Notes: generated by a model not told the origin, from the sequence alone. DNA of 63,892 bases, filler included, from Ministeria vibrans ATCC 50519 (GCA_943704425.1; 14 parts of 14 records of this genome joined end to end with filler, not necessarily neighbours in it); one strand, 5' to 3'; shown: positions 27,234 to 42,821, numbered from the whole stretch's first letter. Program-made: numbers and translations.

Positions 27234-27746
27234 NNNNNNNNNNNNNNNNNNNNNNNNNNNNNNNNNNNNNNNNNNNNTTAATTAATTAANNNNNNNNNNN
27301 NNNNNNNNNNNNNNNNNNNNNNNNNNNNNNNNNAAGGAGTCAAAGAAAAAGATGCATCTCGCCGGGTGTCGCGACGTGGACGGTCTCTTACGAGTGCGAG
27401 AGAAAAGATTGGCTAGGGCGAGATCCTGGCATCGGTGGCGACTGGCCCGTCGTAGACGCCCCTTTTCGTGGGCTGTGCTACTGTGATTTTTCAGATTGAG
27501 GGTGCTCTGCAGTTCCTCTGCAGCACGGGGTTCTCTGCGCACGCGAGTATGGGAAGCCTGGGGTGAGCTGCATTGACATGGCGGATCTAAAGTCAGGCAT
27601 GCGTGTTCAAGTAGGCGAAAACATCATCAATATTATTATTGGATTAATTGGAAATAAAACCCAGCGGTATCACCCAAAAAAGAAAACAAAAAAAAGGCGG
27701 ACGCAAAGAAAATGTCAGAAAAATGAGCTGCTGTATGAGGTTTATT

Positions 27747-29174
27747 TTATGGAGTACACCGAGTACGTCGCGCATTCCCGTCGTCCGCATGAAGTTCTGT
27801 GACGTGGACACCGACAAGTACGGCGTCGGTGCCGGATTGGTGCGGCTCGTAAAGACCCAAGAACGAGCACATCTCGCCACTGAACGAGGGGTCGGAGCTC
27901 GTTACCGTGTGTGTTGCTGAAGTTGTGTTGTAAATGCACGTTAGTACGAGCCTGTCACCAGCAGTGAGGAATAAAGGGGAGCGCAAGGCTTCCAGCTGCT
28001 GTCCGCGATGCTTCACGTCCTTGTAGCCGTTGTAGCGGTAGTCACCTATAATGGAACAAGTGCCATTGCGCCAGCGCTCGAGCCATAGGTGGTGCCCATA
28101 ACGATGGGCGTGGAAGCCCAGCGCAACAAGCCGCACGCGGCCCGACGTGGCAATATCTGCGGCCAGGGTCGCGGTGGGCATCAGCTGCACGTTCGCCTGG
28201 TACGACGTAGTCACGCGATACGCTTGCTGGCCGGCAGGTACGCGAAGATCCGTGGTGGACACCATGCCGATCATGCCGAGCCGGTGCTGCTCGGCCGCGG
28301 CAGGATTATCGACACGGGCGAGCGACAAGGTAAAGCCGCTCCGGTCAACAAAGCCATCGAGGTTGCCTGCCACCTGCCGCGCCAGCCACTCGGGGGGCGG
28401 CAGGTAATGGAAGGCAATCATGAGGTGTGTATACGGCGTCCCCTGGCCAAACGGGAACCCGCCCGTGTCGTTAGGTACCCGAAACCCATTCCCATCCATG
28501 CTGTACGCGGCGATCCACTCGCTGCATACACCTGACTTGCCTTCAACTTCAGCCAAAACGGACATCTTCGCATCTCGATATTGTGATGCCACTTCCTCTG
28601 TGCACAGCAGCAGATTTATGTGGTGTACAACATGCACGCCCTTGTACGTCGTTACAACCGGCTCCCACCCGACAATTGTGTATGTCGCATCAGACGGTAC
28701 ACGGTAAAACGAAACTGAGGAAAACGAGACAGGATTGCCGTTCAGACGACGCCCGTTGTCGTCGCCCATACTATCCTCCGAGTCGTCAATCGCTTCCTCA
28801 AGAACGTTGGCGCTTGAGTGGCCGGGAAAGGCAGACAGCAGCAAGCCGGCAGGATCGCTCACAAGCGACGTTTGCAAATCACTGGAAACAATAAGGTCCC
28901 GCCAGATGACACCCGCCTCGGGCCGGACCTTCATCCCCCCTGCCGTCGTCAAGGCGTCCTTTCCCTTGGCCGACACCTCCCCGTTTCCCACCGAGGACAG
29001 GTAATGGGCAACACGAGCAATGGAAATCCCACATACGACAGCGACCAAAATTGCAAATCCAATGTAGCACAGGGCTTCTTTTGACGATTGGATCCCCCGC
29101 GTGCTCCTCGTGTGCACAAATGGTCTCTCAGTAGAGTGACTAAAGTCGCCAAGAGGGACTTTGATGAAGCCCAT
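27747..29174 (-). CDS. Copper type II ascorbate-dependent monooxygenase (PHM/DBH/MOXD1 family), N-terminal TM anchor, intronless
   Basis: VVHHINLLLC, IAFHY, GFHAHRYG and GEMC copper-ligand motifs. Confidence 0.85.
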   Translation of the reverse strand: MGFIKVPLGDFSHSTERPFVHTRSTRGIQSSKEALCYIGFAILVAVVCGISIARVAHYLSSVGNGEVSAKGKDALTTAGGMKVRPEAGVIWRDLIVSSDLQTSLVSDPAGLLLSAFPGHSSANVLEEAIDDSEDSMGDDNGRRLNGNPVSFSSVSFYRVPSDATYTIVGWEPVVTTYKGVHVVHHINLLLCTEEVASQYRDAKMSVLAEVEGKSGVCSEWIAAYSMDGNGFRVPNDTGGFPFGQGTPYTHLMIAFHYLPPPEWLARQVAGNLDGFVDRSGFTLSLARVDNPAAAEQHRLGMIGMVSTTDLRVPAGQQAYRVTTSYQANVQLMPTATLAADIATSGRVRLVALGFHAHRYGHHLWLERWRNGTCSIIGDYRYNGYKDVKHRGQQLEALRSPLFLTAGDRLVLTCIYNTTSATHTVTSSDPSFSGEMCSFLGLYEPHQSGTDAVLVGVHVTELHADDGNARRTRCTP

Positions 29175-30249
29175 GCCGTCAAGTCAGGGCAGACGCAAAA
29201 TGAGATTAAAAATGAAAAATTATATAATTATTTTATTAATATTTAAAAATTTAAATGTACCGCAGACTGCAGAGTGCAGAGCAGATACGTATATTAGTCT
29301 GTGTCCGTTGCACGCACTGCTCATTGGCGTCATCAATGGCGTGAATCATAAGCGATGTATGCCTTCAGTGACTCCTAGTGGCAAACAGAGAAATCCCTGT
29401 ATTGACGAAGTATTGACTTCGTACTAACCCGTACTGGCTCCGATTATTTCCATTATGTTAGGAATGTGACCACTGACCACAAATTTAGTGCCAGCGCGTA
29501 CCATCGTCTGTCGTGGTGCGCTAACGGTGTATGATTGGCGTGTTATACCACTGGTTTACAAGGCAGAAAGCCGGAGCCTGGGGATTTTGTGCGGTGGGCG
29601 TTCACGCTTATTGCTGAATTCTCTCTTCATTATTTCTCTTCGCGAACAATATCATTTCTTGCCGGCGCATGTCACCGCCCGCCGTGTTGCGTAAGTGGTG
29701 TATGGAAGTGACAGATCACAGTGTGTGATGCCACTGGTGCAAAAGGTGCGTCGGTCGATGGCATACGCATTTCTCGTTTGTTTTCGGAACTATTAATAGT
29801 AATTAAAGATCGCTCAGCATGAGTACAGCTATTCACAGTATTTTTTTCGCCTAACCACAAAGAAAAAGATTGTTACCCACATCAATACACGTGCATTGGG
29901 GTGGGATCGGGTGGGGGTTAGGGTGAGCGTGATGATCCTGAAAATCCGAAAAAAATCCTAGCGCGTTCACAACGGTTTTTTGTGATTCTCGCATCCTAAG
30001 AACATTTTAAGCCCCCCTGATATTTGAGAGTGCAGAGCAACTGAGACACGGCTTTTTCAAGGTCTGAATAAAATTTAGAAATAGTATCTTCATAGTATCC
30101 ATTTTGTATATCATCATCCCTCACTTTGATCCCTCAAAGAGCGTCACCAGAGTTTCAACTTCGTTTCAACCAGCTTTGCCAACAAAGTGTTGCCCCCCCC
30201 CCCCCCCCCCCCCCCCCCNNNNNNNNNNTAGTTGTCGAGTGTCTGGTGA

Positions 30250-31336
30250 ATGGTGGGGATGTCGCCGGGGACAGTTGACGTCCTCTATAGGGTCGTTGCT
30301 CATGTCGAATCTTGGCTTTTGGGGGCGGAGGTGCAGTCCCTGGAGCTGCTCATTAAACGGTCAGTCTCAACAGCGCCAATCAACGCCGTGCTGTCGCTTC
30401 CCGCGACCCCTACGACGAGTGTCCACTGCGACGTATCCTCATCGCTTCCTGCGACCCCTACGCCGACGAGTGTCAACTACGACGTGTCTCCGTCGCTTCC
30501 TGCGACCCCTACGACGAGTGTGAACTACGACGTGTCCTCGCCTCGCTCTGCGACCCCTACGCCGACGAGTGTCCACTGCGACGTGTCCTCGCCTCGCTCT
30601 GTGACCCCTACGACGAGTGTGAACTGCAGTTCCTCCGCCCACCTTTCACCGACCGGGCATTGCGATCTTCAGAACGGTTGTACAAGAGATGCGCCTTATG
30701 TACAAGCAGGCCGCACCGGGCATTCGTAAACCGATGGCTCTGTAGTGGTCGCTCCTGACCTAACTCGACAAGAAATTGTCAAGTACATCGCTGAATCAGT
30801 CCCCGCAGACGACGCAGTTGAATACGTTTACTCGAGTGCGAGTCTCGATCGACGTCTGATGACCGCGACGCTTGGCTGGGTGCGACAGACGCTTATGCAG
30901 ATCAAGTACTCGGTTTTTTACGATGAGTACGATGATGTGGCTAAAAGAACACAGAATCAGCCGAATCGAAGGGGCTAAATATGCCGATCTCGTCGGAGAC
31001 CAGGAGTTTATCCGTCTTGCTACCTCGGCAATGGGTCATTTTCCCGCGAACACCATCAAAGACCTTTATCATGCAATGTCCACTCACAACACCCACGCTC
31101 TTTTAAGACTGTGTGCATCTGGCATTGGCAATTTCGACACAACCAGCGCCGCACCGATAAAATTATTACAATTAGCGGTTCAGAAACTTAAGAACCGTGG
31201 CTCTCTTGTTCGAGAAGTTCTGCAAGACTCAGCTCACTACTCCGTAGGCTCTCCAAGCCTGGGGCTGTGTCCCAAAGGTGGTTGTTTTTGGAACAAGAAG
31301 CCTGCCAATGGAGTCCAGGGGAGTCACCTAAAATAG
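30250..31336 (+). pseudogene. Frameshifted hypothetical gene with ~50-bp internal tandem repeats
   Basis: Three consecutive ORFs in different frames; repeats encode SLPATPT(P)TSV(H/N)(C/Y)DVS. Confidence 0.45.
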
Positions 31337-31341
31337 CTCTG

Positions 31342-31863
31342 CTACGCTCGCTCTGTCTTGGCTGTTGACGCCACGAAGCGTAACCATGGCAAGACAACGC
31401 TCTGTGAACTTTCTCTGGGAGACTCCTCACGGATGGCCAGAACACGCTCATAATACTCAAGGGCACGAATGTAGGATCCTTGTGCGTGGAACACAATGGC
31501 CATGTTGTTGAAAGTGATGCCTGTGTCTGGGTGGCCTCGGGATAGACACTTCTGTTGGACGGTCAAAGTTTGCTCAAGGGACTGAAGAGCCAGATCATTC
31601 TGACCCTGACTTATCAAAAGCTCGCCCATTGTTCCAAACGCATATGCGGCAACCACACACTCCTCATCTCCAAGACACGTCATACCCATTTCCATCGCCC
31701 GCATCGCTTCCCCAAACCGCCCTTTGACTTTCCAGAACTCCGCCAAGCGCACCCCAAGCAACACGCCTTCTTCGTCCTTCTTTCCAACCTTCACAACCCG
31801 CTCCAAACACTTCATTCCATGCATGCCAACCTCTCGACTCCACTCCATCGCAGAGTATATCAT
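31342..31863 (-). pseudogene. Kinesin-light-chain-type TPR gene fragment
   Basis: GHPDTGITFNNMAIVFHAQGSYIRALEYYERVLAIRE. Confidence 0.7.
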
Positions 31864-32009
31864 ATCATTGTGCCCAACTCAGACATTGCGACAAAACAGA
31901 TCAGTGATATTTATTTGTTCATTTTTCCAACCTCCCGTACTGCTCCGCACTGTCTCACGTGAAGTGAACAGCCTTGTTCTGCTGTGAGCGAGGGGCGGTT
32001 CGGTGTGAC

Positions 32010-32227
32010 AGAAAGGACATCTCTCTCGCCAGTGTCTCCTTGTCCGTCGTCTGACCTCCTGCTGCTATTGTCGGGTTTGTGTTGTCTGGGGAGAGAGGGA
32101 AGAGCAATTCTAGATACGACTGTGGGCAAAGAGCGGCTCGACGTAGCAGAAAGGCCGTCCCTCTCACCAGTGTCTCCTTGTCTGTCGTCTGACCTCCTGC
32201 CGTTGCTGTCGGGTTTCGGTTGTCTGG
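32010..32227. repeat. Two ~80-bp direct repeats, 138-bp period
   Basis: gaaagg..ccagtgtctccttgtc.gtcgtctgacctcctgc..tgtcgggttt..ttgtctgg at ~32010 and ~32148. Confidence 0.8.
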
Positions 32228-32230
32228 AGC

Positions 32231-32400
32231 GTGTCCCAGGCACAAGGAGACCAGCCTCGTGCTCTTGAGTATTACGAGTGTGTTCTGACCATCTCTGAGA
32301 AGTCTCTTGGTCCCGACCACCCATCCACAGGCTCCACATTGAACAACATTGGCGAGGTTTACCGGCAGCAAGGAGACTATACACTCGTGCTCTTGAGTGC
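32231..32400 (+). pseudogene. Isolated TPR module, opposite strand to the upstream TPR fragment
   Basis: RALEYYECVLTISEKSLGPDHPSTGSTLNNIGEVYRQQGDY. Confidence 0.7.
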
Positions 32401-32510
32401 GATCCTCTTTCCTCCGCAGACGTGAAGTTCCCTCTCTCTCTCTTTCTATCTACGCACACGATCACAACAAAAAGCATCAATACAAATGGAAAAAATGTGG
32501 AAAATTAACT

Positions 32511-33160
32511 TCAATTTGTAGAAGGGCAAGTGCCCCAACTAGGCCGGGGCAAAGTCCATGACAAAGCATCTCGATCGAAGTTAACTGGAATTGACCCGAT
32601 ACTAGAAACGCACCACAACGATAAATCGAGGTTAAAAGAATTAGCTTCGTGAAACATATGCTTCATGTCCGTCACTTGCTGCACATCCCACGAGGAAATG
32701 TCTCCGTTGAAAGACTTTGCAAAACCAAACATGGTGTTCATGTTTGTCACTTGACTAACATTCCAAAGCGACAAATCGCCATTGAATTGGTTTGCATGAC
32801 GAAACGTTCCAGCCATAGAAGTGACCCGTGATACGTCCCACTCAGCAACATTCCCGTTGAAAGATGAAGAAAAAAAGAGCACCCACATGTTCGTCACAGA
32901 TGACACATCCCAATTCGACAAGTCTGGTGATGAGAGGCCCGAGTATGCAAACGCCCACTGAAGGGATGTTGTGTCACTCAGATCAGGTGCATCTAGAGCG
33001 CTAACGTCCATATTCGCACAGCCATAAAAATAATTGCCGTTGTTACCCAGGATGGAGGGAACCCCACTGTTTGATGTCCAAGATCTTGAGTTTGTCCCCA
33101 CCGTTGTCAAAGCGCCAACCGACAATGCTCCCAGTTATCTCCAGAGTATAATTTCCGGCC
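32511..33160 (-). pseudogene. DUF285/BspA-like surface-repeat protein, frameshifted near 33050
   Basis: Five WDVSxVTxMxxxF repeats; upstream GWRFDNGGDKLKILDIKQWG lies in another frame from LGNNGNYFYGC. Confidence 0.85.
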
Positions 33161-33420
33161 TGGGAACAGAGAACGATACATCCCACGCACATATATTGTA
33201 TACTTACTGGTTGTTTAGGCTCTGAAATGTGACAATGAGTAAAGAATTGAAGAGTGAAAATGTGAAAATGGATTCGAGGTTGGTACATCTACATTAGGAT
33301 CAAATGGCAGTTGAAGCCGCTAGATTATCTGTTGTAAGCGTCGGTACAGTCGCAGAATGTGTCGCTTTTCAAACAAAGAACAAGAGGAGCCTGTAGAGTC
33401 TGTTCTGTTGGGCGGTAAAG

Positions 33421-33867
33421 GTGACTCGCAGAAAAAGAACCCTAACCCACCACGCACCGCCGCGCCGCCTCCACAAGCCCCACACCATCCAGGGCACTCA
33501 CGCCCGCCGTCCGAAACGACGCAGGAAACACGACATCGCCTGCTGCGTCGACGCTGAAAAGGCACAGTTGCGCATCCTCCTCGAACAGACCAAAGTGCCT
33601 GCCTCTGTAGACGCGGGCGCCACAGATCAAATCGCTGCGCACTCCAGGGACCGTCAGGGACATGAGCTTCATCCCAGCAAAGCACTTGAGCGTGGACCCA
33701 AGGCAAACGCGACGCCGCAAGGTCAGCAGAAACGCGTCCGCTTCGACTTTGGATTGGTAAACAACCCGTCTGTCGACTCGGGTGGCACGCATTCTTCCTC
33801 CGTTGGTGGCTGGAGTGAGTTAGTAGACGTGGGTCATGGCAGGGGTGAGAGCAGTGAATTGAAGTGA
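33421..33867 (+). CDS. Hypothetical ORF
   Basis: 148-aa ORF, no recognisable motif. Confidence 0.25.
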   Translation: MTRRKRTLTHHAPPRRLHKPHTIQGTHARRPKRRRKHDIACCVDAEKAQLRILLEQTKVPASVDAGATDQIAAHSRDRQGHELHPSKALERGPKANATPQGQQKRVRFDFGLVNNPSVDSGGTHSSSVGGWSELVDVGHGRGESSELK

Positions 33868-34337
33868 TCTCGGTGAATGAGGAGTATCTACTGTCACAAT
33901 GTCGCTATTCCATCTAATCATTCATATTCTTTCTCTGTAGATTCACGACTTCAGCACCTCACTATTCGTTTCAATGGAAACGCCAGTTTGCCTGGTTTGC
34001 CCGTCTACCTGTCTCAGCCTCTGGTATTAGCCGAACCATGTCGCTGCCCGCTTCCCTGAGACGATGGATTCCAGGTTTGAAGAAGGTTCACTTGAGAGTG
34101 TTGACTGGCAGAGAAGAAAAATGGTGCTCTCAAAGGGTTTCATTCGTAGTAGGGGGTAAAGTGACATAGATCAAGATAGATGGGGCAAGCAACAAAGAAA
34201 TAGAGAGTAAGACAAAAGCGAGATTGAGGCAGTGTGAAAGAGAGAGAGGGAGAGAGAGAGAGTGAGTAAGAGAGTGTGTGCGTGAAAGTTAGGGACACGG
34301 AGACAGAGAAACATGAGAGAGAGGGGGAGTCAGGTTC

Positions 34338-37300
34338 TCACGATGGCAAGGCAAACACGATCGCCACGTCCGTCTTCACACCGCGAGCAAACATGCGACG
34401 GCACTCGACGAGGTCGGGAAAAACGTAGTATCTCTGATGCTTGCCAGACACCAGGTTGTGGCGCGTCTCATTCAGAGACACGTAGTTGCGCAGGGACCGC
34501 CCAAAGACAGCATTTCCAGGGAGGCACACAGCAGCTGAGGTGGCACAAAACTGCTCATACAGCGCGTCTTTCGCCACCTCGCGACGCCAAGTGCCCTCCT
34601 CAGCATCATGCAGATACGTGTACCAGAAACACCCAACCTCGTCCAGTATCTGCCGCTTCACGTCCCAGATAGCCTTCTGCAGAATGGGTGGCGTGACATT
34701 CGCGTCAAACCGAGAGAGGTCGCGCTCGAGCAGCTTGGCCATGAACGCAGCAACGCCCCCGTCGACAATCTCGGCGTGCAGAGCGGCTTGGTAAGCGTCG
34801 TCCTTGTACTCACTGCTCACGTTGATCACAAGGTAGCGACGGTCGTCAATCTCCATTGGCGCGACACGTGCATCGTTGGAAGCCATGAAGAGTTGTGAAT
34901 GATTTCGGATGGTGATGGAGTCCTTGCATCCGCGCCCAATAGTGAGAGTTGGACCAGTGATCAGCGCCTTGAGTGCGGCCGCAATGTTCGGGTTGTACTC
35001 ATCAAATCTCGTGTTGAGGAACGCAACAACGTTCATGGCCCTCGTGAGCAAGCTGTTGTCGCCATGGCCCGTCAGCTGCTCACTGTCCTGAGTGGCGACA
35101 AAATGCTTGCCGTACATCGCGCCAATGATGTCCGAAACAAAAGTGGTCTTGGCGCTGTCCTCTCCGCCGCAGAGCACAAAGACCTTTGGGAGACGCACGC
35201 TGGGTTGCTGGAGCATGTACGCGAGATAGTCCAGCATGTAGGTGTTAAGCGTGGCGTCGTCACCGCATATGGTCGTCCGAATGTGCTCGAGGATGCGCGT
35301 GCAGTCACCATGGGCAGGCTCCACCGCGAAACCGCTCCAGAGATTAAAGCAGTCCGTGCTCGTGCGCGGGTAGGTCTCGCCCGGCTCCATCACGATGCCA
35401 TTGTAGGTCGTATGTCTGCTCCACTTCCACCACGCCTGTGCAACATTGACTTGCTTTCTGCCCTCGCCAAGCGCAAACTCGGCAGCGTTGGCGTTAAGAA
35501 AGTCGCTTTTGTCAAACACAATCGGAACTGTGCGTTGACTCAGTGGATCGTAATGCTGGGTGTCGATCACACACGTCTTGCGGCCACAGCGCGTGACCGC
35601 GTACCGCTCGTTGAACTGCTCCAGGCACTCGGTGATTGGTGGTGTTTGCACTGCAGCGTCTGCTTCTTCCCCACAGGATGCAGCGCGCAGGGTAAGTGTG
35701 ACTGTGGTCGTCTCGCCAGTCTGCAGAAGGGATAGACAGGGACCTTCTCCGAGTGCACCACTGGCATCGTGACACCATTGGATTGGGTCTGACAGGTCAC
35801 TGCTGACACGACACTTCTTTGCGCCCGTCTGATCGGTGTAGAAGAAGAGGCCACTGAGAGGATCTTTGCGGAGAGCGTCAATCAGTGGCGCGAGCACCAT
35901 CTTTTTGACATCGCCGAGCGTCTCGAAGACAACATGGGATGGCAGACGTAGGTAAATGCTGCGGTTGGTGTCGGAGGACGCGTCGGACTGGTACAGGGGC
36001 AGGCAGGCGACGGCATCGACGGGCAGGTTGAGGAGCGGTGCAAGAATGGCGTGGAGCTTTGGCAGGAGGTGCGTGTTCGTGGCATCGCGCAGTTGGTCGA
36101 GTGTGACAGACGCATCGGCAAGCGAGCAGTCGAGAATGAGGGGGACCGTCGAGACCGCGCCTGTGACGACCTCGTAGTAGGAGCGATCGGTATTGCGCAT
36201 TGTACGGACACATTGCGACGCTGGCTGCACGATGTACGCTGGGAATGTTCGGCCATTGGGAGTCTTCGTGTTGAAGTACCAAATGCGTAAGTCATCGGTC
36301 GGGCAGGGCACCGGCATGTTGTAGCGCGTGCGCCAGTTGTCGAGGTTCTCTTCCTTGAGCGGTGGTCGGCCCTCGACGTACGCGCGTGCGTTCTTGAGGT
36401 ACTTGCCGGGGAAACGCGGATCGTCAGGGTGATGGAGGGTCCACTTGGCACCGAAGGGAGAGTCAAACGTTGGTGGCGGAACTGGCGTACAGGTGTCGTT
36501 GTGGTCTTCTTCGAGGAAGGCGTCGCCTTCGTTGTCGTCGTTAGAGAGTGAAACAATCGAGTGCGTGAGCCCATCTTCGCCACCATCGTCGTCTTGGGAT
36601 CCATTTGTAGCGCCATCTTTGCTGCCATCGTCGTCTTGGGTTGCGCTGCCACCGTCGTCTTGGATTCCTTGGGTTGCGCTGCCATCGGCGTCTGTGGTTG
36701 CGCTGCCATCGTCGTCTTGGATTCCTTGGGTTGCACTGCCAGCGTCGTCTGTGGTTCCGCCAGCCCACTGAATGCCCTCGAAGTTGATGTCGCCCTCGTT
36801 GACGTCCGTGTCGTCTTCGTCGTCCATGGGTGTAGCAGCCCGCTGAATGCTCTCGTCGCTGTTGTCGCCCTCCATGGTGTCAGTGTCGTCTTCCTCGTCC
36901 ATGGGTGTAACAGCCCGCTGAATGCCCTCGTCGCTGTTGGCGCCTTCCATGGTGCCCGTGTCGTCTTCTTCGTCCATGCGTGTAGAAGCTCGCTGAATGC
37001 GCTCGAAGTTGTTGTCGTCCTCGCTGACGTCCGTGTCGTCTTCGTCGTCCATGGATGTAGAAGCCCGCTGAATGCCCTCGTCGCTGTTGGCGCCTTCCAT
37101 GGTGTCCGTGTCGTCTTCTTCGTCCATGCGTGTAGAAGCGCGCTCGAAGTTGTTGTCGTCCTCGCTGACATCCGTGTCGTTTTCTTCGTCCATGGATGTA
37201 GAAGCTCGCTGAATGCCCCCGTCTCTGTTGCCGCCCTCCATGGTGTCAGTGTCGTCTTCGTCTGTCCCTTCGCGCAGCGTGTCTGAGTGTGTCGACGACA

Positions 37301-37583
37301 AGAAAGTGTTTGCCGGGTCAGACAAGCGTTGGCGCTTCGTAGGTGAGATATGGCGGTGAGAATTGCTCGCTCGTCGTTTGCTCTGCTGCTGGAGAGACAC
37401 AACGCTGCTGTCACCGCTTTTCACCTTGACGCTGGGGCGACTGGGAGACGCATCGTCTTGAGACGTTTCTGATGCTGTCGCTGGCAAACCTAAAGAAGAT
37501 GAAGGGTGGTCAGAAACTGTGGTATCTGTATGGTCCGAAGGGAAGGCGCGCCGATTCTTTGCAGGAGGTTGCGTGCTTGGCAT
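34338..37583 (-). CDS. Primase-helicase-like protein: acidic repeats, degenerate AEP/PrimPol-like domain, NrS-1/DUF5906-type SF3 helicase and winged helix
   Basis: YYEVV..PLILDC..SDASSDTNRSIYL..VVFE (PrimPol-like); FNLWSGFAVEP..GD..ILEHI..IC..YMLDYLAYMLQQP; GGEDSAKT; LKALITG; LFMASN..DDRRY; YYVFPDLVECRRMF. Confidence 0.85.
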   Translation of the reverse strand: MPSTQPPAKNRRAFPSDHTDTTVSDHPSSSLGLPATASETSQDDASPSRPSVKVKSGDSSVVSLQQQSKRRASNSHRHISPTKRQRLSDPANTFLSSTHSDTLREGTDEDDTDTMEGGNRDGGIQRASTSMDEENDTDVSEDDNNFERASTRMDEEDDTDTMEGANSDEGIQRASTSMDDEDDTDVSEDDNNFERIQRASTRMDEEDDTGTMEGANSDEGIQRAVTPMDEEDDTDTMEGDNSDESIQRAATPMDDEDDTDVNEGDINFEGIQWAGGTTDDAGSATQGIQDDDGSATTDADGSATQGIQDDGGSATQDDDGSKDGATNGSQDDDGGEDGLTHSIVSLSNDDNEGDAFLEEDHNDTCTPVPPPTFDSPFGAKWTLHHPDDPRFPGKYLKNARAYVEGRPPLKEENLDNWRTRYNMPVPCPTDDLRIWYFNTKTPNGRTFPAYIVQPASQCVRTMRNTDRSYYEVVTGAVSTVPLILDCSLADASVTLDQLRDATNTHLLPKLHAILAPLLNLPVDAVACLPLYQSDASSDTNRSIYLRLPSHVVFETLGDVKKMVLAPLIDALRKDPLSGLFFYTDQTGAKKCRVSSDLSDPIQWCHDASGALGEGPCLSLLQTGETTTVTLTLRAASCGEEADAAVQTPPITECLEQFNERYAVTRCGRKTCVIDTQHYDPLSQRTVPIVFDKSDFLNANAAEFALGEGRKQVNVAQAWWKWSRHTTYNGIVMEPGETYPRTSTDCFNLWSGFAVEPAHGDCTRILEHIRTTICGDDATLNTYMLDYLAYMLQQPSVRLPKVFVLCGGEDSAKTTFVSDIIGAMYGKHFVATQDSEQLTGHGDNSLLTRAMNVVAFLNTRFDEYNPNIAAALKALITGPTLTIGRGCKDSITIRNHSQLFMASNDARVAPMEIDDRRYLVINVSSEYKDDAYQAALHAEIVDGGVAAFMAKLLERDLSRFDANVTPPILQKAIWDVKRQILDEVGCFWYTYLHDAEEGTWRREVAKDALYEQFCATSAAVCLPGNAVFGRSLRNYVSLNETRHNLVSGKHQRYYVFPDLVECRRMFARGVKTDVAIVFALPS

Positions 37584-38461
37584 TAAGAGAGTGACGAAAG
37601 GAATTGATGGGTCGTCGCACAAATATAAGTTTTGATGATTCGCGCTTGCAAAAAAAAAAAGTGTCTTAAGCGTGCTGGCTCACCATAGTCTCCCTGACAG
37701 AATTCAGTGGGTACTTGCTTGGCCTGAAAAGACAAGGTTTACGTCAATGCTTTTCTTGCGTTCTCTTCGTTCTCTTTGTACCTGAACCTCGGCGTTGGGG
37801 TTCCCATCCGGCGCAGTCGCCGTATCGAGTTTCGCACACATGCCACCCAGTCCCTCCACCACCTTGTGCAGATGTGTCTGCAGCACTGCAACCGCCGCCG
37901 TGTACTCTGCTGTCTTCTCGGGAAGTTCCTTGGATAGCTTCTGCCGGAACTGGCGAGTGTTCGTCTTGCGTTGACGAATTTCCTGCATCAATTCAGTGCG
38001 TCGCGTCTCATGGGCCTGCTTCTCCCCGGTGACTTTTAACATCGCCTCGTCAATAAGTTGGTGCGCCATAGCCCATACATCGTAATCATCTGTCTTCTTG
38101 CTGCAGACAGTTTCCTCTTGTATCTGGAGCACACGCACATCGCATTTATTGATGTCGACGCTGATCTTTGAAAACTCAGCCATGCACGTCGCAATGGCTC
38201 GAAATTCTTGAACAAGTTCACTCAACGTCTCAGTCAACTGCTTGGCCGCCTAGTAGAATGCGAGTTTGAATCAGATTATCGTAAGGAAAAGCTGAACAAT
38301 TACCTGAACTTCCCCGTTGTTCTCCAGCTCTGTCAAACGCCGCAGGTCCTCCATGACCTTTTCAGCTGCCTGAGCGGCGGCTTGCACCTCCATATTGACC
38401 ACCGTACACGCATCACGCGTCACTCCGTCACTCCGTTGCACAAGAGTATCGACATTCTGAA
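37583..38461 (-). CDS. Spliced coiled-coil protein (ORF1) immediately upstream of the primase-helicase; further decayed exons probably extend to ~39300
   Basis: In-frame GT-AG introns at 38250-38303 and 37724-37781, probably also 37645-37683; heptad-rich helical sequence; stop TAA at 37583-37585. Confidence 0.6.
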
Positions 38462-39848
38462 CTGAAAAAAAAAAAAACGCGCGCGCGTTTCAAACGAGTT
38501 TCGAGCACCATCTCGTTTTCTTTTAAAATTAGAGTAAGTGCGAGGTCGCGGCACGTGTAATGCAGCAGTAGAAGCTATATTCGTCCTATGGACCTACTAG
38601 CGGGCGCACAGCGACTGGTGTGTCTTTTTTTTTTTTTTTTTTTTTTTCACTGACGACTCTTTGGTAACACCAGCATTAAAAGGCTGCATAGCGTTATTAG
38701 ACTTTTTAGACGGGGCGATAGACAAGAACCATCGAGCGATTGTCCTGCTGTTCTTGACGAATCGTCTTGGTGTCGCGCCGAAAGAAAAAAAAAACCGGTC
38801 GAACTCACGAAGAGAAGAAAACGCGTGTTTGTACCCGGGGGTAGGCGCGCGGATGTATGCTGAGTGAGTTATGGCTTACCAGTGGAAGCCGTCGACGATG
38901 TATTTCGGCGGGACATGGGAAAAGAGACTGACTAGACTCTCGAGAGACTGGCTGCTCAAATTGTCGAGAATCGCCTGAAACGCTCTGTGTGTGCAGGTTG
39001 AGCCTCTTCACAGAGAAGCGCCATGCGAGGACTTGTGTGGCGCTGGACGGCGATTAGAAACGCGTCGATGGTCACCAGAGCGGGTTGAGAGATAAGGGAA
39101 AGCATTGCGTGCAGTTTCTGCTCAAGCTGAGCGCTATTCAAATTTCAAGGTTTTCTTGCCAACGTCCTGGTGATGTTGAGGTCGGCCCGTACTCCCTCAC
39201 CCTATCACTGGTCACCAAGCCCCTCGTAGAGCGTCTCAGAACTTCGTCAAGCATCTGCGCGACGAGCACCACCGCCAGGTGTCTCAATGTGTTTTAGAGA
39301 TGTACAGAAAATCACACTTGCTCAGCAGTTTTCTTGCTTCTGGCGAGCTAGCGACCGCCACGAAGGATCAAGACGAGGGTGAGGAGGAGAAGCCGAACGA
39401 TTGCAAGTAGTAAGCGAGATCGTTTGGAAAAAAAACAGCCATTTTCAGCCATTACGCAACCTTCACAACCAACACTGTCCACGCTAAATAAACAACAACC
39501 TGCCCCTGCTCCCATTCGGTAGTCGGTACACCCCATTTACAAATATCGGGCGTGCAGAATGAACAGTCCGGCAAAAAAAATCCCTCTCACACAAAACACA
39601 AGCATCTTCCGCCACACAAGGCATACAGCAACCTACCCCTGAACCCATAGGGCAAACGGCGCCGGACGACGCCCTCTCTGGTTTGGGCTCAGTTCCGTAA
39701 CGCAGACATTGACGATCAACACAACAAGAAAACACAACCCCATCAACACAACCCTCTCCTATGGATATACGGGGTGTGTTGGCTTATCGAGATTCGAGAA
39801 GGCTTATTTCCATGGATCAGGAATGAATAAAGTGTCGAACTGTCGATC

Positions 39849-40298
39849 GATCTTCAAACCAGGCAAACCAGGCAAAGTTTGGAATTTGCATTTTGGACTC
39901 AAGGAGGTGGTGAGGTGGTGGGGTGGTTGGCAGGTGGGGTGGTAGGCCGCCCGCCCGTATGCGACTGATCTTCAAACCATTATCCAAGCAAACCAGGCAA
40001 ACCAGGCAAAGTTTGGAACTTGCATTTTTCACTCAAGGAGGTGGTGAGGTGGTTGGCAGGTGGGTGGTAGGCGACTCTTCAAACCATTATCCAGGCTGAC
40101 CAGGCAAACCAGGCAAAGTTTAGAATTTGCATTTTGCACTCAAGGAGGTGGTGAGGTGGGTGGTGGGCGACTGATTTTCAAACCGTTATCCAGGCAAACC
40201 AGGCAAACCAGGCAAAGTTTGGAATTTGCATTTTGGACTCAAGGAGGTGGTGAGGTGGTGAGGTGGTTGGCAGGTGGGTGGGTGGTGGTGGTGGTGGA
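39849..40298. repeat. Four ~95-125-bp tandem units with nested 9-bp AAACCAGGC repeats and GGT-rich tails
   Basis: Units start TTCAAACC at ~39852, 39971, 40078 and 40176; each has (AAACCAGGC)x2-3, then AAAGTTTGGAATTTGCATTTT..ACTCAAGGAGGTGGTGAGGTGG. Confidence 0.92.
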
Positions 40299-40648
40299 CA
40301 CTGGCATTCTGGCAAAGTCCAGAGCTTGTAAGCAAAAGTGTAGTGCGGTGGTGGAGTGTGACCAAGGCTAGTGGCAGAGTTGAGAGGAGAAAAGCCTTCA
40401 GCATGTCTGGGGTGTCCAAGGTGTCTGCCCACTTGATGTGTCCATGGCGTGAAATTGTTAGAGTGTTAGCAGACATCAACAAAATCAGCAGGTCGAGGCT
40501 TGTGGCTCGCGATAAGGGTGGCAAGGCGCTGATGCGATGCGAAGGCTGTAGAAATGCGGATCTCTAAGTAGTGATCAATTCAATTTCCAATTCCGAATTC
40601 AGTCTTTTCAATTTCTTTCTTTTTTTGTCTCACTTCCAGTGTCTCATA

Positions 40649-42721
40649 ATGGCGAACTCAAGTCAGAAAAATGGCTACGGCGAGTGTGAAAAGCGTCTAC
40701 GTCCCGATTTAGACGAAGGTAGGGGTGCAGATGAACGACCACACAAGCGACAGTGTCTTGCAGCGCGAGCGTATGGGGGGAGCTCATCAGCGACTGGCGA
40801 GGCGATCAAGGAGGACCAGGCCGCCGTCCAGACCGCTCAACAGGACACGTTCGCTCGTGTGGACGGCGGCTTCCCCTCGACACAGAGTGACAAAGACGAC
40901 CACGCCAGTGACCATGCCGCAAGCAGCACCACAAGTCCGATGAGTGTGGACACTGACCTCTCCTCAACAGAGAGCCACAACGACGGCCAGGCCAGTCACC
41001 ATGCCGCAAGCAGCACTGCAAGTCCAATGAGTGTGGACACTGACCTCCCCCCAACAGAGAGTCACAACGACGGCCAGACCGGTCACCAAAACGCACACAG
41101 TACCACAACTCTAATGAGTGTGGACACTGCCCTCCCTTCAATGGAGAGTGACGACGACAACGACCAGACCGGTCACAAGAACACACGCAGCGCTAGTGGC
41201 GATTCGATGGATGTAGACATTGAGCTCCTCCCAACAGAGAGTGACATCGATGACCAGGCTCTTGCCAACTGTGCCGACCAGCTTGAGGTCAACCGAGCTC
41301 TTGCCGACCAATTTGAGGCTGACCAGTTTGAGGCTGACCAGTTTGAGGCTGACCAGTTTGAGGCCGACCAGGCTCTTGCCGACCAGGCTCTTGCCGACCA
41401 GGCTCTTGCCGACCAGGCTCTTGCCGACCAGGCTCTTGTCGACCAGGCAAACGCGGCGACTGCCACAGCTGGAGTGAGCGCGATTGTCGCAGCACCAGTC
41501 ACACCCACGCTCCCGAGTATGCGCGACACCTTGGCCACGTTTGACCGCAAGTTTTACGTCGTTCCACAAGGTGGCGGCACGTACGTCATAGAACCGAACT
41601 TCTTCGATCCTGAGATGGAGACCCTATGTACACGGTATATGACTACGGCGCAGTTCAGAGAATACACGGCTCGCGAGTGGGCTCAGCCGGAGAAGGGAAA
41701 AGCTGTCCAGGTCGGCCCATTCTGGCTGTCGCGCCCCGCCACACGCCAACTCAACGGTGTTGTCATGGACCCGTCGCTGCCACCGGGCCTCTGTCAGAAA
41801 ACCGTCACACACAGCCAGCATGCTCGCCAAATCGACGTGTTCAATACGTGGCAGGGCTTCGCCGTCAAGCCGGAAAAGGGAGACTGGAGTCTCATCGACA
41901 AGCACATTCGCGAGGGCGTTGCCAATGGCAAGTCGGCCACATACGAGTACCTTCTCAATTGGATTGCGCGACTGGTGCAAGACCCTGGTACAAAGGCAAC
42001 GACGGCCCTGGTACTCGGTGGAGAACAGGGACGTGGCAAAGGGACCTTCATCAAGGACATCGTGGGTGCTTTGTTTCATGCGTCACATTTTGTGCAAATC
42101 ATGCGCGCAGAGCAGGTGACGGGTCGCTTCAATGCGATCCTCAAAGACAAGGTGCTAGTCTTTCTCGATGAGGCGTTCTTTGCGGGGGACAAGAGCCACA
42201 CCGGAGTGATCAAGACCCTCATTACCGAGACCACAATGCCGCTCGAGCCCAAGGGCAAAGACCCGTTCCTCGTCAAAAATCGCACTGCGCTGCTCATGGC
42301 CTCCAACAACGACTGGGTGGCGCCCGTCGAGCTGACCAACCGCCGGTTTTTCATGGTTCGCGTGAACAACGACGCCACCCTGCTCACTCCAGAGTACTTC
42401 AAGGCGCTCCACGCACAAATTAAAAACGACGGCCTCGCCGCATTCCTGCACGCCATGCTCGAGCGAGACATTAGCGAATTTCGGATGGCCGCCTTTCCAC
42501 GCGAAGACGCAGAGGAGTTTGAGTGGGACAACGTGCTGCGCACCGGCAGCGCAGAGATGCGTTTCATGCACCAGCTCCTCAAAGACGCGGACGGCGAGGC
42601 GTCCGATTGGATGGGCGAGCACTCCGTTCCGAAGAGGCAGCTCTACGACGAGTTTATCGCAAAGAGTGGCTGTCTTGTGAAGTTCAATCACGAATCGGCG
42701 GTGCACAAGAAACTGCAACAG
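40649..42721 (+). CDS. NrS-1/DUF5906/D5-like SF3 helicase with a repetitive acidic N-terminus, 3' truncated
   Basis: FNTWQGFAVKPEKGDW..YLLNWIARLVQDP; Walker A GEQGRGKGT; FNAILKDK; Walker B LVFLDEA; IKTLITE..EPKGKD; motif C MASN; NRRFF. Confidence 0.9.
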
Positions 42722-42821
42722 NNNNNNNNNNNNNNNNNNNNNNNNNNNNNNNNNNNNNNNNNNNNTTAATTAATTAANNNNNNNNNNNNNNNNNNNNNNN
42801 NNNNNNNNNNNNNNNNNNNNN

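Follow-up and report, generated by a model that had tools for sequence, protein, structure and literature searches.

The DNA examined here (the window) is a stretch of 63,892 nucleotides from Ministeria vibrans ATCC 50519 (GCA_943704425.1) in which unlinked assembly pieces are chained by 100-nt spacers (44 N, a 12-nt stop-codon word, and 44 N). Our subject is a cassette of two divergent helicase-family genes, A and B, on either side of a repeat array in the piece from 27334 to 42721 (15.4 kb; Table 1). Gene A is transcribed and spliced and has lost catalytic residues of its helicase domain, whereas gene B retains every one of the residues that are invariant in the family; judged from these residues, A appears to be a dead motor and B a live one. 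As the pieces are unlinked and a spacer begins at 42722, gene B is cut by an assembly break, in agreement with an earlier note on this DNA, made from the sequence alone, that had called the contig truncated, and the genes that Pfam identified on other pieces, among them PDS5, a NUDIX enzyme, and a phosphatase of the Slingshot type, are not neighbors of the cassette. Genes of this sort point to a eukaryotic source with short introns, probably a protist.

Gene structures and helicase residues of A and B

The earlier note described two homologous, intronless helicase open reading frames (ORFs), at 34338-37583 on the minus strand and from 40649 to beyond 42721 on the plus strand, with a separate spliced coiled-coil ORF between them. 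Both ORFs exist, are divergent, and belong to DUF5906 (PF19263), with scores of 39 bits (E 1.4e-9) for A and 81.8 bits (E 7.6e-23) for B that exceed the curated cut-off of 27.6. They are homologous over 393 aa (31% identity, E 2e-51), and the quoted motif order, from FNxWxGFAVxP and YLLxWIA through Walker A and MASN to RRF, is present. The assignment to the NrS-1-type superfamily 3 (SF3) helicases also held, with matches to PDB 6K9E (E 2.7e-9) and PHROG 1156 (E 3e-35) in addition to Pfam. The best matches of the two helicases are phage, plasmid, and metagenome proteins at 30-45% identity.

The structure of the left gene is different from that first described. The region 33400-42721 is represented, with 0.90-0.93 of its words, in DNA-type runs made in 2011 and 2022 from a single organism, one of which is possibly the window's own source, and it also occurs in RNA-type runs from 2011 and 2025. 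Four GT-AG introns of 418, 54, 58, and 194 nt are skipped in RNA-type contigs of two studies (X6 and X10) and retained in DNA runs X1 and X3, and their excision yields a single open frame of 1284 aa; one X10 contig, 37110-39769, crosses all four. The RNA label of runs X6, X9, X10, and X13 is a guess, supported by the splice joints that are absent from X1 and X3. Because splicing joins the coiled-coil ORF to the helicase exon, that ORF is the N-terminus of A and not a separate gene, and the ATG at 37583 that had been taken as the start of the helicase falls within intron 4. Thus the description as intronless stands for B, as far as its sequence is seen, and fails for A. The start codon of A is probably the ATG at 38916, the first in frame. 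RNA-type contigs begin upstream of it at 39769 (X10), 39796 (X6), and 39839 (X9), which gives a weak hint that transcription starts near 39800, and B is overlaid by RNA-type contigs in X6 and X9. RNA-type contigs are lacking over the array, to which no weight is given here. The share of run X13 (organism C) comes down to one 156-nt leader contig at depth 3. A 107-nt piece of the A leader, 39555-39661, recurs at another locus in X1, after a CCCTAA-type repeat. The N-terminus encoded by exons 1-4 gave only weak matches to unrelated coiled-coil-rich families in Pfam, PHROG, and other profile searches.

Twelve invariant helicase columns were set from an alignment with 120 listed of 150 homologues, and all 12 residues are present in 111 of the 123 aligned rows. 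B has 12 of 12 and A, the lowest row, 5 of 12. A lacks the two glycines of Walker A, the acids of Walker B, and the glutamate and lysine of the hairpin, with a glycine at the hairpin-lysine column; it retains the Walker A lysine, the sensor, and the two arginines of the finger. In B the Walker A, Walker B, hairpin lysine, sensor, and arginine finger are all intact, and K535 aligns with the NrS-1 hairpin lysine. The available text of the NrS-1 study (PMC7102993) describes a hairpin-lysine mutant that does not unwind and forms a more stable hexamer, and two arginines that are supplied by the neighboring subunit. The C-terminal 100 residues of A score 50.5 bits against a hidden Markov model (HMM) of 68 homologue tails (best shuffle 4.7), and a winged-helix DNA-recognition domain is predicted there; the tail region of two homologues gave weak RFX winged-helix matches (E 0.024 and 0.16).

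The B motor is under purifying selection. In run X1, the depth of contigs that match 39378-42216 exactly is 198-228, compared with 171-247 for A and 212-244 for the left flank, and variant contigs of the B side, 87-95% alike, add a depth of 126-187; the variants used were 40 of 243 rows in one listing and part of 40 of 130 in another. Contigs of both copies occur in X9, and a second locus is likelier than an allele. In the second copy, silent changes make up 20 of 34 altered helicase codons, compared with 23-29% expected (p 1e-5 to 2e-4), and the N-terminal tail of B shows an excess of replacements (12 of 13 codons) that does not reach significance (p 0.08-0.17). Pieces of B at 86-100% are also present in an algal metagenome of 2024, which has two B variants at 42515-42679, with 6 and 14 differences in 165 nt and depths of 9 and 5.

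The earlier note also took the two genes to be a primase-helicase pair, which is not what we find: the catalytic helicase residues are gone from A, and a primase is missing from B, since its 284 N-terminal residues, an acidic repeat tail with basic motifs ahead of the DUF5906 helicase, match no Pfam domain. The middle domain of A, which we took to be primase-like from its motifs ahead of any test, probably has a degenerate PrimPol-type fold. Single-sequence AlphaFold models of A were poor (predicted local distance difference test, pLDDT, 34 and 41). With the middle-domain model (pLDDT 41), Foldseek ranked human PrimPol first of 350,542 PDB chains (E 0.082), VIA-align returned just generic palm-like folds (poxvirus D5 at rank 41, Z 3.6), and a viral structure library gave no significant match. 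A PrimPol family profile, built from viral contigs found with a motif pattern, matches human PrimPol at E 4e-14 and was aligned with A by hhalign at E 0.33 and 0.14. Motifs I and II fall in register in this weak alignment, but both are changed: if it is followed, A has DCS in place of the DxE of motif I and SIY in place of the SxH of motif II. With a 17-seed profile A scored 1.6 bits, a value equalled by 1 of 1000 shuffles and 2 of 327 natural decoys. The domain had no match among Pfam, PHROG, NCBIfam, and library profiles and no relative in 1.84 billion representatives, PDB sequences, phages, and viral contigs, and two GC-rich primase patterns gave zero matches. Two repeat-driven matches, to a protease with immunoglobulin repeats and to polyubiquitin, were discounted. 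Among the viral contigs, L162, L165, and L167-L172 (13-24 kb) carry a PrimPol-type archaeo-eukaryotic primase (AEP) fused to a helicase-like domain of another type, and loci L179-L181 an AEP fused to a D5-like helicase.

The repeat array and its 9-nucleotide period

The nested-repeat array reported between the genes is real, with four units between the A and B transcription starts and all 9-nt repeats in one orientation. An 18-mer of the array has 8 matches in the window compared with 0.09 expected, and within the array 8-mer matches number 63 forward and 0 reverse. Seven period-9 runs occur in the window, four of them between A and B, and 2 of 108 other 500-nt bins contain one. A back-joint from 40274 to 39849 in both DNA runs (X1 and X3) hints that the array is longer than assembled, with more units; this is also the sole back-joint in the X1 and X3 contigs, and a circular junction was not found in them. 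A lone doublet of the same 9-nt repeat, inverted relative to the array, lies ~335 nt downstream of the A stop. No sigma-70 promoter was found in the A-B spacer, and viral and metagenome contigs contain no exact copy of a 25-nt motif of the array. The 37-nt unit piece 39847-39883 recurs at another locus amid different sequence, seen in the same form in X1, X6, and an algal metagenome (X12), and we propose that this piece is a dispersed binding site or an element end. The spacer piece 40434-40529 (96 nt) recurs, 97% alike, in an unrelated context in X12 and is possibly a small repeated element within the promoter region.

The array, which the earlier note had called iteron-like, shares its period with putative origins of relatives. 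The related loci examined were the best 80 of 162 viral matches and the best 80 of at least 441 metagenome matches, and 111 distinct phage and metagenome loci had 500 nt past the helicase stop. A period-9 run lies in that interval in 18 of the 111, compared with 19 of 2321 other windows (p 2e-15), and coding controls had 1; each of the remaining periods between 6 and 13 was seen in 0-5 loci, and period 5 in 12, compared with 8 controls. In 17 of the 18 both orientations of the repeat are present. Opposed head-to-tail 9-nt clusters of this kind, 0-500 nt past the helicase stop (L001, L041, L086, L093, L118, L131, L155, and others), are putative origins of DUF5906 primase-helicase elements, with a shared period and varied units. 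Opposed clusters around an AT-rich core were not seen at the array of the window, and the sequence downstream of B lies beyond the sequenced end.

Table 1. Features of the A-B cassette and its right-hand boundary; coordinates are those of the window.
Feature	Position	Strand	Basis
Gene A coding span, five coding exons, 1284 aa	34338..38916	-	RNA-type splice joints; open frame after splicing
Gene A exons	38916-38880, 38461-38304, 38249-37782, 37723-37684, 37489-34338	-	RNA-type contigs
A 5' untranslated leader, ~880 nt, 12 upstream ATGs	38917..39800	-	Starts of RNA-type contigs
A exons 1-4, ~230-aa helical coiled-coil-like N-terminus	37684..38916	-	Spliced to exon 5
Basic motif of A resembling a nuclear localization signal, immediately ahead of acidic linker	37337-37323	-	Sequence
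Acidic linker of A, low in complexity (34% D/E), with coding repeats of 75, 57, and 33 nt	36541..37290	-	Repeat and composition scans
Probable degenerate PrimPol-type primase fold in A	35700..36380	-	Suggestive fold and profile matches
Degenerate DUF5906 helicase domain of A	34640..35645	-	5/12 invariant columns
A helicase motifs	Walker A 35168-35145; Walker B 35024-35010; hairpin 34940-34923; arginine finger 34844-34833	-	Sequence
Conserved C-terminal tail of A, predicted winged-helix DNA-recognition domain	34341..34640	-	Tail HMM
Array, four 100-134-nt units, each a 9-nt head-to-tail doublet/triplet (CCAGGCAAA), an AT-richer middle, and a G-rich tail	39842..40290	+	Repeat scans
Lone doublet of the array's 9-nt repeat, opposite orientation to array	33987..34004	-	2 mismatches/18; 0.09 matches expected in window
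Gene B, >691 aa, intronless as far as seen, cut in C-terminal tail	40649..42721	+	ORF, Pfam, motif columns
Assembly spacer closing the piece	42722..42821	none	Spacer make-up; piece opens after spacer 27234-27333

A proposed resident, replicon-derived pair and its alternatives

The GT-AG splicing and a host-like composition speak against a bacterial or phage contaminant, as the earlier note had argued from the introns and from motifs resembling nuclear localization signals: GC content at third codon positions (GC3) is 0.69-0.72 in the cassette genes and 0.49-0.69 in seven in-frame host ORFs, and the tetramer composition of the cassette resembles that of host genes. A comparison of depth, suggested in the note as a check against host contigs, found the cassette level with the left flank in the contigs of both DNA runs, X1 and X3 (from 2011 and 2022). 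Host-like codon use, the four introns of A, the flank-level depth, and the two B variants in the 2024 metagenome together fit a long-resident locus. Among the ORFs of the piece, Pfam identified no capsid, packaging ATPase, protease, protein-primed DNA polymerase B (pPolB), or integrase, although divergent capsids can escape Pfam and the piece ends at 42721. No intact primase was found in 27334-42721, and no long inverted pair surrounds the cassette, the best relevant pair being 27 nt at 81%, with the right end beyond the assembly. The statement of the earlier note that capsid, integrase, and terminal repeats are not visible holds for the 15.4-kb piece. The proposal of an integrated self-replicating element is not sustained for the sequenced part, in which there is no intact primase, one of the two helicases is dead, the iterons point one way, and depth in two DNA libraries is that of the flank; a domesticated viral module, the other proposal, fits.

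The reading to which we give about an even chance is that of a resident, replicon-derived pair in which B would be the motor and A a non-catalytic partner or brake, both predicted to bind the one-sided array in their shared promoter. The module would derive from a virus, a virophage-like element, or a satellite-type element, because other members of this helicase family belong to phages, plasmids, and mavirus-related elements. By analogy with PriRep5 of Staphylococcus aureus pathogenicity islands (SaPI) at its iterons, B would form a ring and load at the 9-nt repeats via its C-terminal tail, and A would bind the same repeats with its conserved tail. A may also enter the B ring, to which it could contribute an arginine finger but neither an ATP site nor the DNA-pulling hairpin, so that the ring would be slowed or parked. 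As the array separates the transcription start of A from that of B, binding there would at the same time tune both genes. The sequenced part contains neither an intact primase nor a second, opposed repeat set, and firing as a classical two-ring origin would therefore not be expected of it.

Several considerations weigh against a resident pair of this kind. The binding of the A and B tails to the 9-nt repeats is a prediction, and the PrimPol assignment falls under significance in every test. The 9-nt unit of the array is no closer to the units of relatives than random 9-mers, of which 528 of 3000 were as close, so that the period alone is common to them, and their repeats lie downstream of the helicase gene whereas those of the window lie upstream. 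The grouping of A with B, both long branches, has a Shimodaira-Hasegawa-like approximate likelihood ratio test support of 96 in an LG+G4 tree (123 rows, from 302 segments thinned to 121) but 76/35 in a mixture-model tree of 50 of the 123 rows (four long branches dropped, 24 chosen at random). The identity of A to B is no higher than that of A to nine other homologues, and the pair is not singled out by shared rare residues (14 for A with B, up to 18 for A with others); sister origin is thus weakly indicated. The differences of the second copy extend into the A leader and 37456-37650, and this copy may lack the body of A. The depths are contig depths, not copy numbers, with the left flank and not a housekeeping gene as baseline. 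Finally, the unseen sequence past 42721 could contain viral genes, a primase, or a repeat cluster opposed to the array.

That last point is the core of an alternative that we consider rather unlikely, in which the cassette would form an end of a larger element that still moves (a Polinton-like virus, PLV, a virophage-like element, or a helicase-bearing transposon), with A as its own regulator and a primase or polymerase, integrase, capsids, and opposed half-origin past the break. The piece is indeed cut inside B, the B side exists in at least two copies, the 37-nt array motif has other flanks elsewhere (X1, X6, X12), and the lone inverted doublet could mark the left end. DUF5906 is described as the commonest pPolB partner in one group of mavirus-related elements in the available text of one survey (PMC13215967), and AEP-SF3 replicases as possibly mobile by themselves in that of another report (10.64898/2026.10.13.758929). 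Against this, endogenous PLVs are said to be intronless in the accessible part of the source (PMC10120064) and A has four spliced introns; composition is host-like, only two copies are evident, the 15.4 kb contain no terminal inverted repeat or viral gene, and no eukaryotic-virus relative appeared among the best 80 of 162 viral loci, as judged by 30-40% identity and tree position only. A further reading, which we regard as unlikely, is a capsid-less nuclear replicon of a kind not known from eukaryotes, in which B, as a self-loading helicase of phage type, would open the array and borrow a host primase in the manner of large T or E1, and A would be a spliced, dead paralogue that licenses, brakes, or tethers B; the opposed half-origin would then lie past the assembly break or be formed on circularization with the inverted doublet behind A.

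Two other explanations separate the fates of the genes. One, improbable in our estimate, makes A a restriction factor of the host: a dead decoy of a replicase, equipped with host exons, would poison the helicase rings of an invading virus or satellite or block its origins, and B would be a second captured gene or the natural target of A. The dead motor with its retained arginine finger and tail, the host-style spliced N-terminus with a long leader, and the position of A among fragments of variable gene families (TPR, DUF285, and an orphan family) would suit such a factor, but an intact B under purifying selection beside a cognate-looking array points to a local job, and no virus with a closely similar helicase turned up (33-45% identity at best). 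The least probable explanation in our view is that two old captured helicase genes with unrelated fates are neighbors by chance, A being chimeric with a new job and the array a promoter minisatellite. The weak sisterhood of A and B is in keeping with this, as are the abundance of repeats in the window, where period-9 runs also occur in other bins, and a unit sequence that relatives do not share; set against it are the head-to-head arrangement of two genes of a family rare in eukaryotes and the placing of four of the seven period-9 runs between A and B, with a doublet past the A stop.

Comparator systems resemble a resident A-B pair in part. The NrS-1 polymerase C-terminal helicase (6K9C/6K9E) and the DUF5906 phage and plasmid primase-helicases are similar to A and B in helicase domain and motif order (33-45% identity to the best matches), and the latter also in a 9-nt repeat period near the gene, but they combine an active primase and helicase in one chain. 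In the window, motor and primase-like fold are on separate genes, the primase-like fold appears dead, as does one of the motors, and four spliceosomal introns interrupt one gene. Their repeats are downstream and in both orientations; those of the window are upstream and in one. SaPI PriRep5, the model for B loading, is likewise an SF3 ring with a C-terminal tail and clustered short repeats; in the available part of its description (10.64898/2026.10.17.759575), a winged-helix tail binds the iterons and the origins carry repeats in both orientations, opposed around an AT-rich core downstream of the gene, unlike the window, and no dead partner is described. AEP-SF3 replicases of PLVs, virophages, and nucleocytoviruses (including poxvirus D5 and C962R of African swine fever virus) have a PrimPol-type AEP followed by SF3, the probable ancestral layout of A, in a eukaryotic setting like that of the window, and some large viruses have D5-like gene pairs and repeat-flanked helicases. 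Such fusions are common in PLVs according to the accessible text of one source (PMC11296320), and that of another covers the fused layout and catalytic residues of C962R (PMC10516667). Unlike in these viruses, genes for a capsid, ATPase, protease, or integrase and terminal repeats are not seen in the piece, A contains introns and is degenerate in two domains, and the helicases are of the phage DUF5906 subtype.

Polyomavirus large T and papillomavirus E1 are primase-less SF3 initiator-helicases that use host primase, and E2 is a second origin-binding protein, a regulator or tether; by analogy, a helicase such as B could replicate DNA in a nucleus. They differ from A and B in SF3 subfamily and in the origin-binding domain, and the piece shows no capsid genes or sign of an episome. 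Helicases of the phage type that load themselves at iterons occur in mobile elements of prokaryotes and in small DNA viruses of eukaryotes. Literature searches did not turn up a pseudo-helicase that is spliced, transcribed, and nuclear and is paired across a half-origin with a live helicase, although supplements of PLV and virophage surveys may list such loci, and two helicase copies in one locus were found in 0 of 160 related loci (87 of them at least 10 kb). If a resident pair is the right reading, the cassette would be a replication module in the course of being tamed by its host and a natural live/dead pair for the study of mixed helicase rings, and it may provide a site-specific loader functional in a eukaryotic nucleus.

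Neighboring sequences on the piece

The earlier note described the contig as free of housekeeping genes, yet the left part of the piece contains host-type genes identified with Pfam: an intronless copper type II monooxygenase at 27747-29183 (minus), TPR fragments at 31345-32450, and an intronless DUF285 ORF at 32511-33134 (minus) with a lower GC3 (0.49). The TPR fragments occur in both orientations, with 76-nt inverted arms, and belong to a very high-copy family whose summed depth reaches up to ~180 times that of the flank. Another nested array, at 30393-30625, has 48/51-nt units with a higher period of 99 nt and lies near a 10-N gap. No Rfam families were found in 33800-42721. Just past the lone inverted doublet, an ORF of 116 aa at 33442-33792 (minus) has no Pfam match and belongs to a multi-copy orphan family. 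Variants of it are numerous among the contigs of both DNA and RNA-type runs, and ENA assemblies contain six relatives at 55-86% identity.

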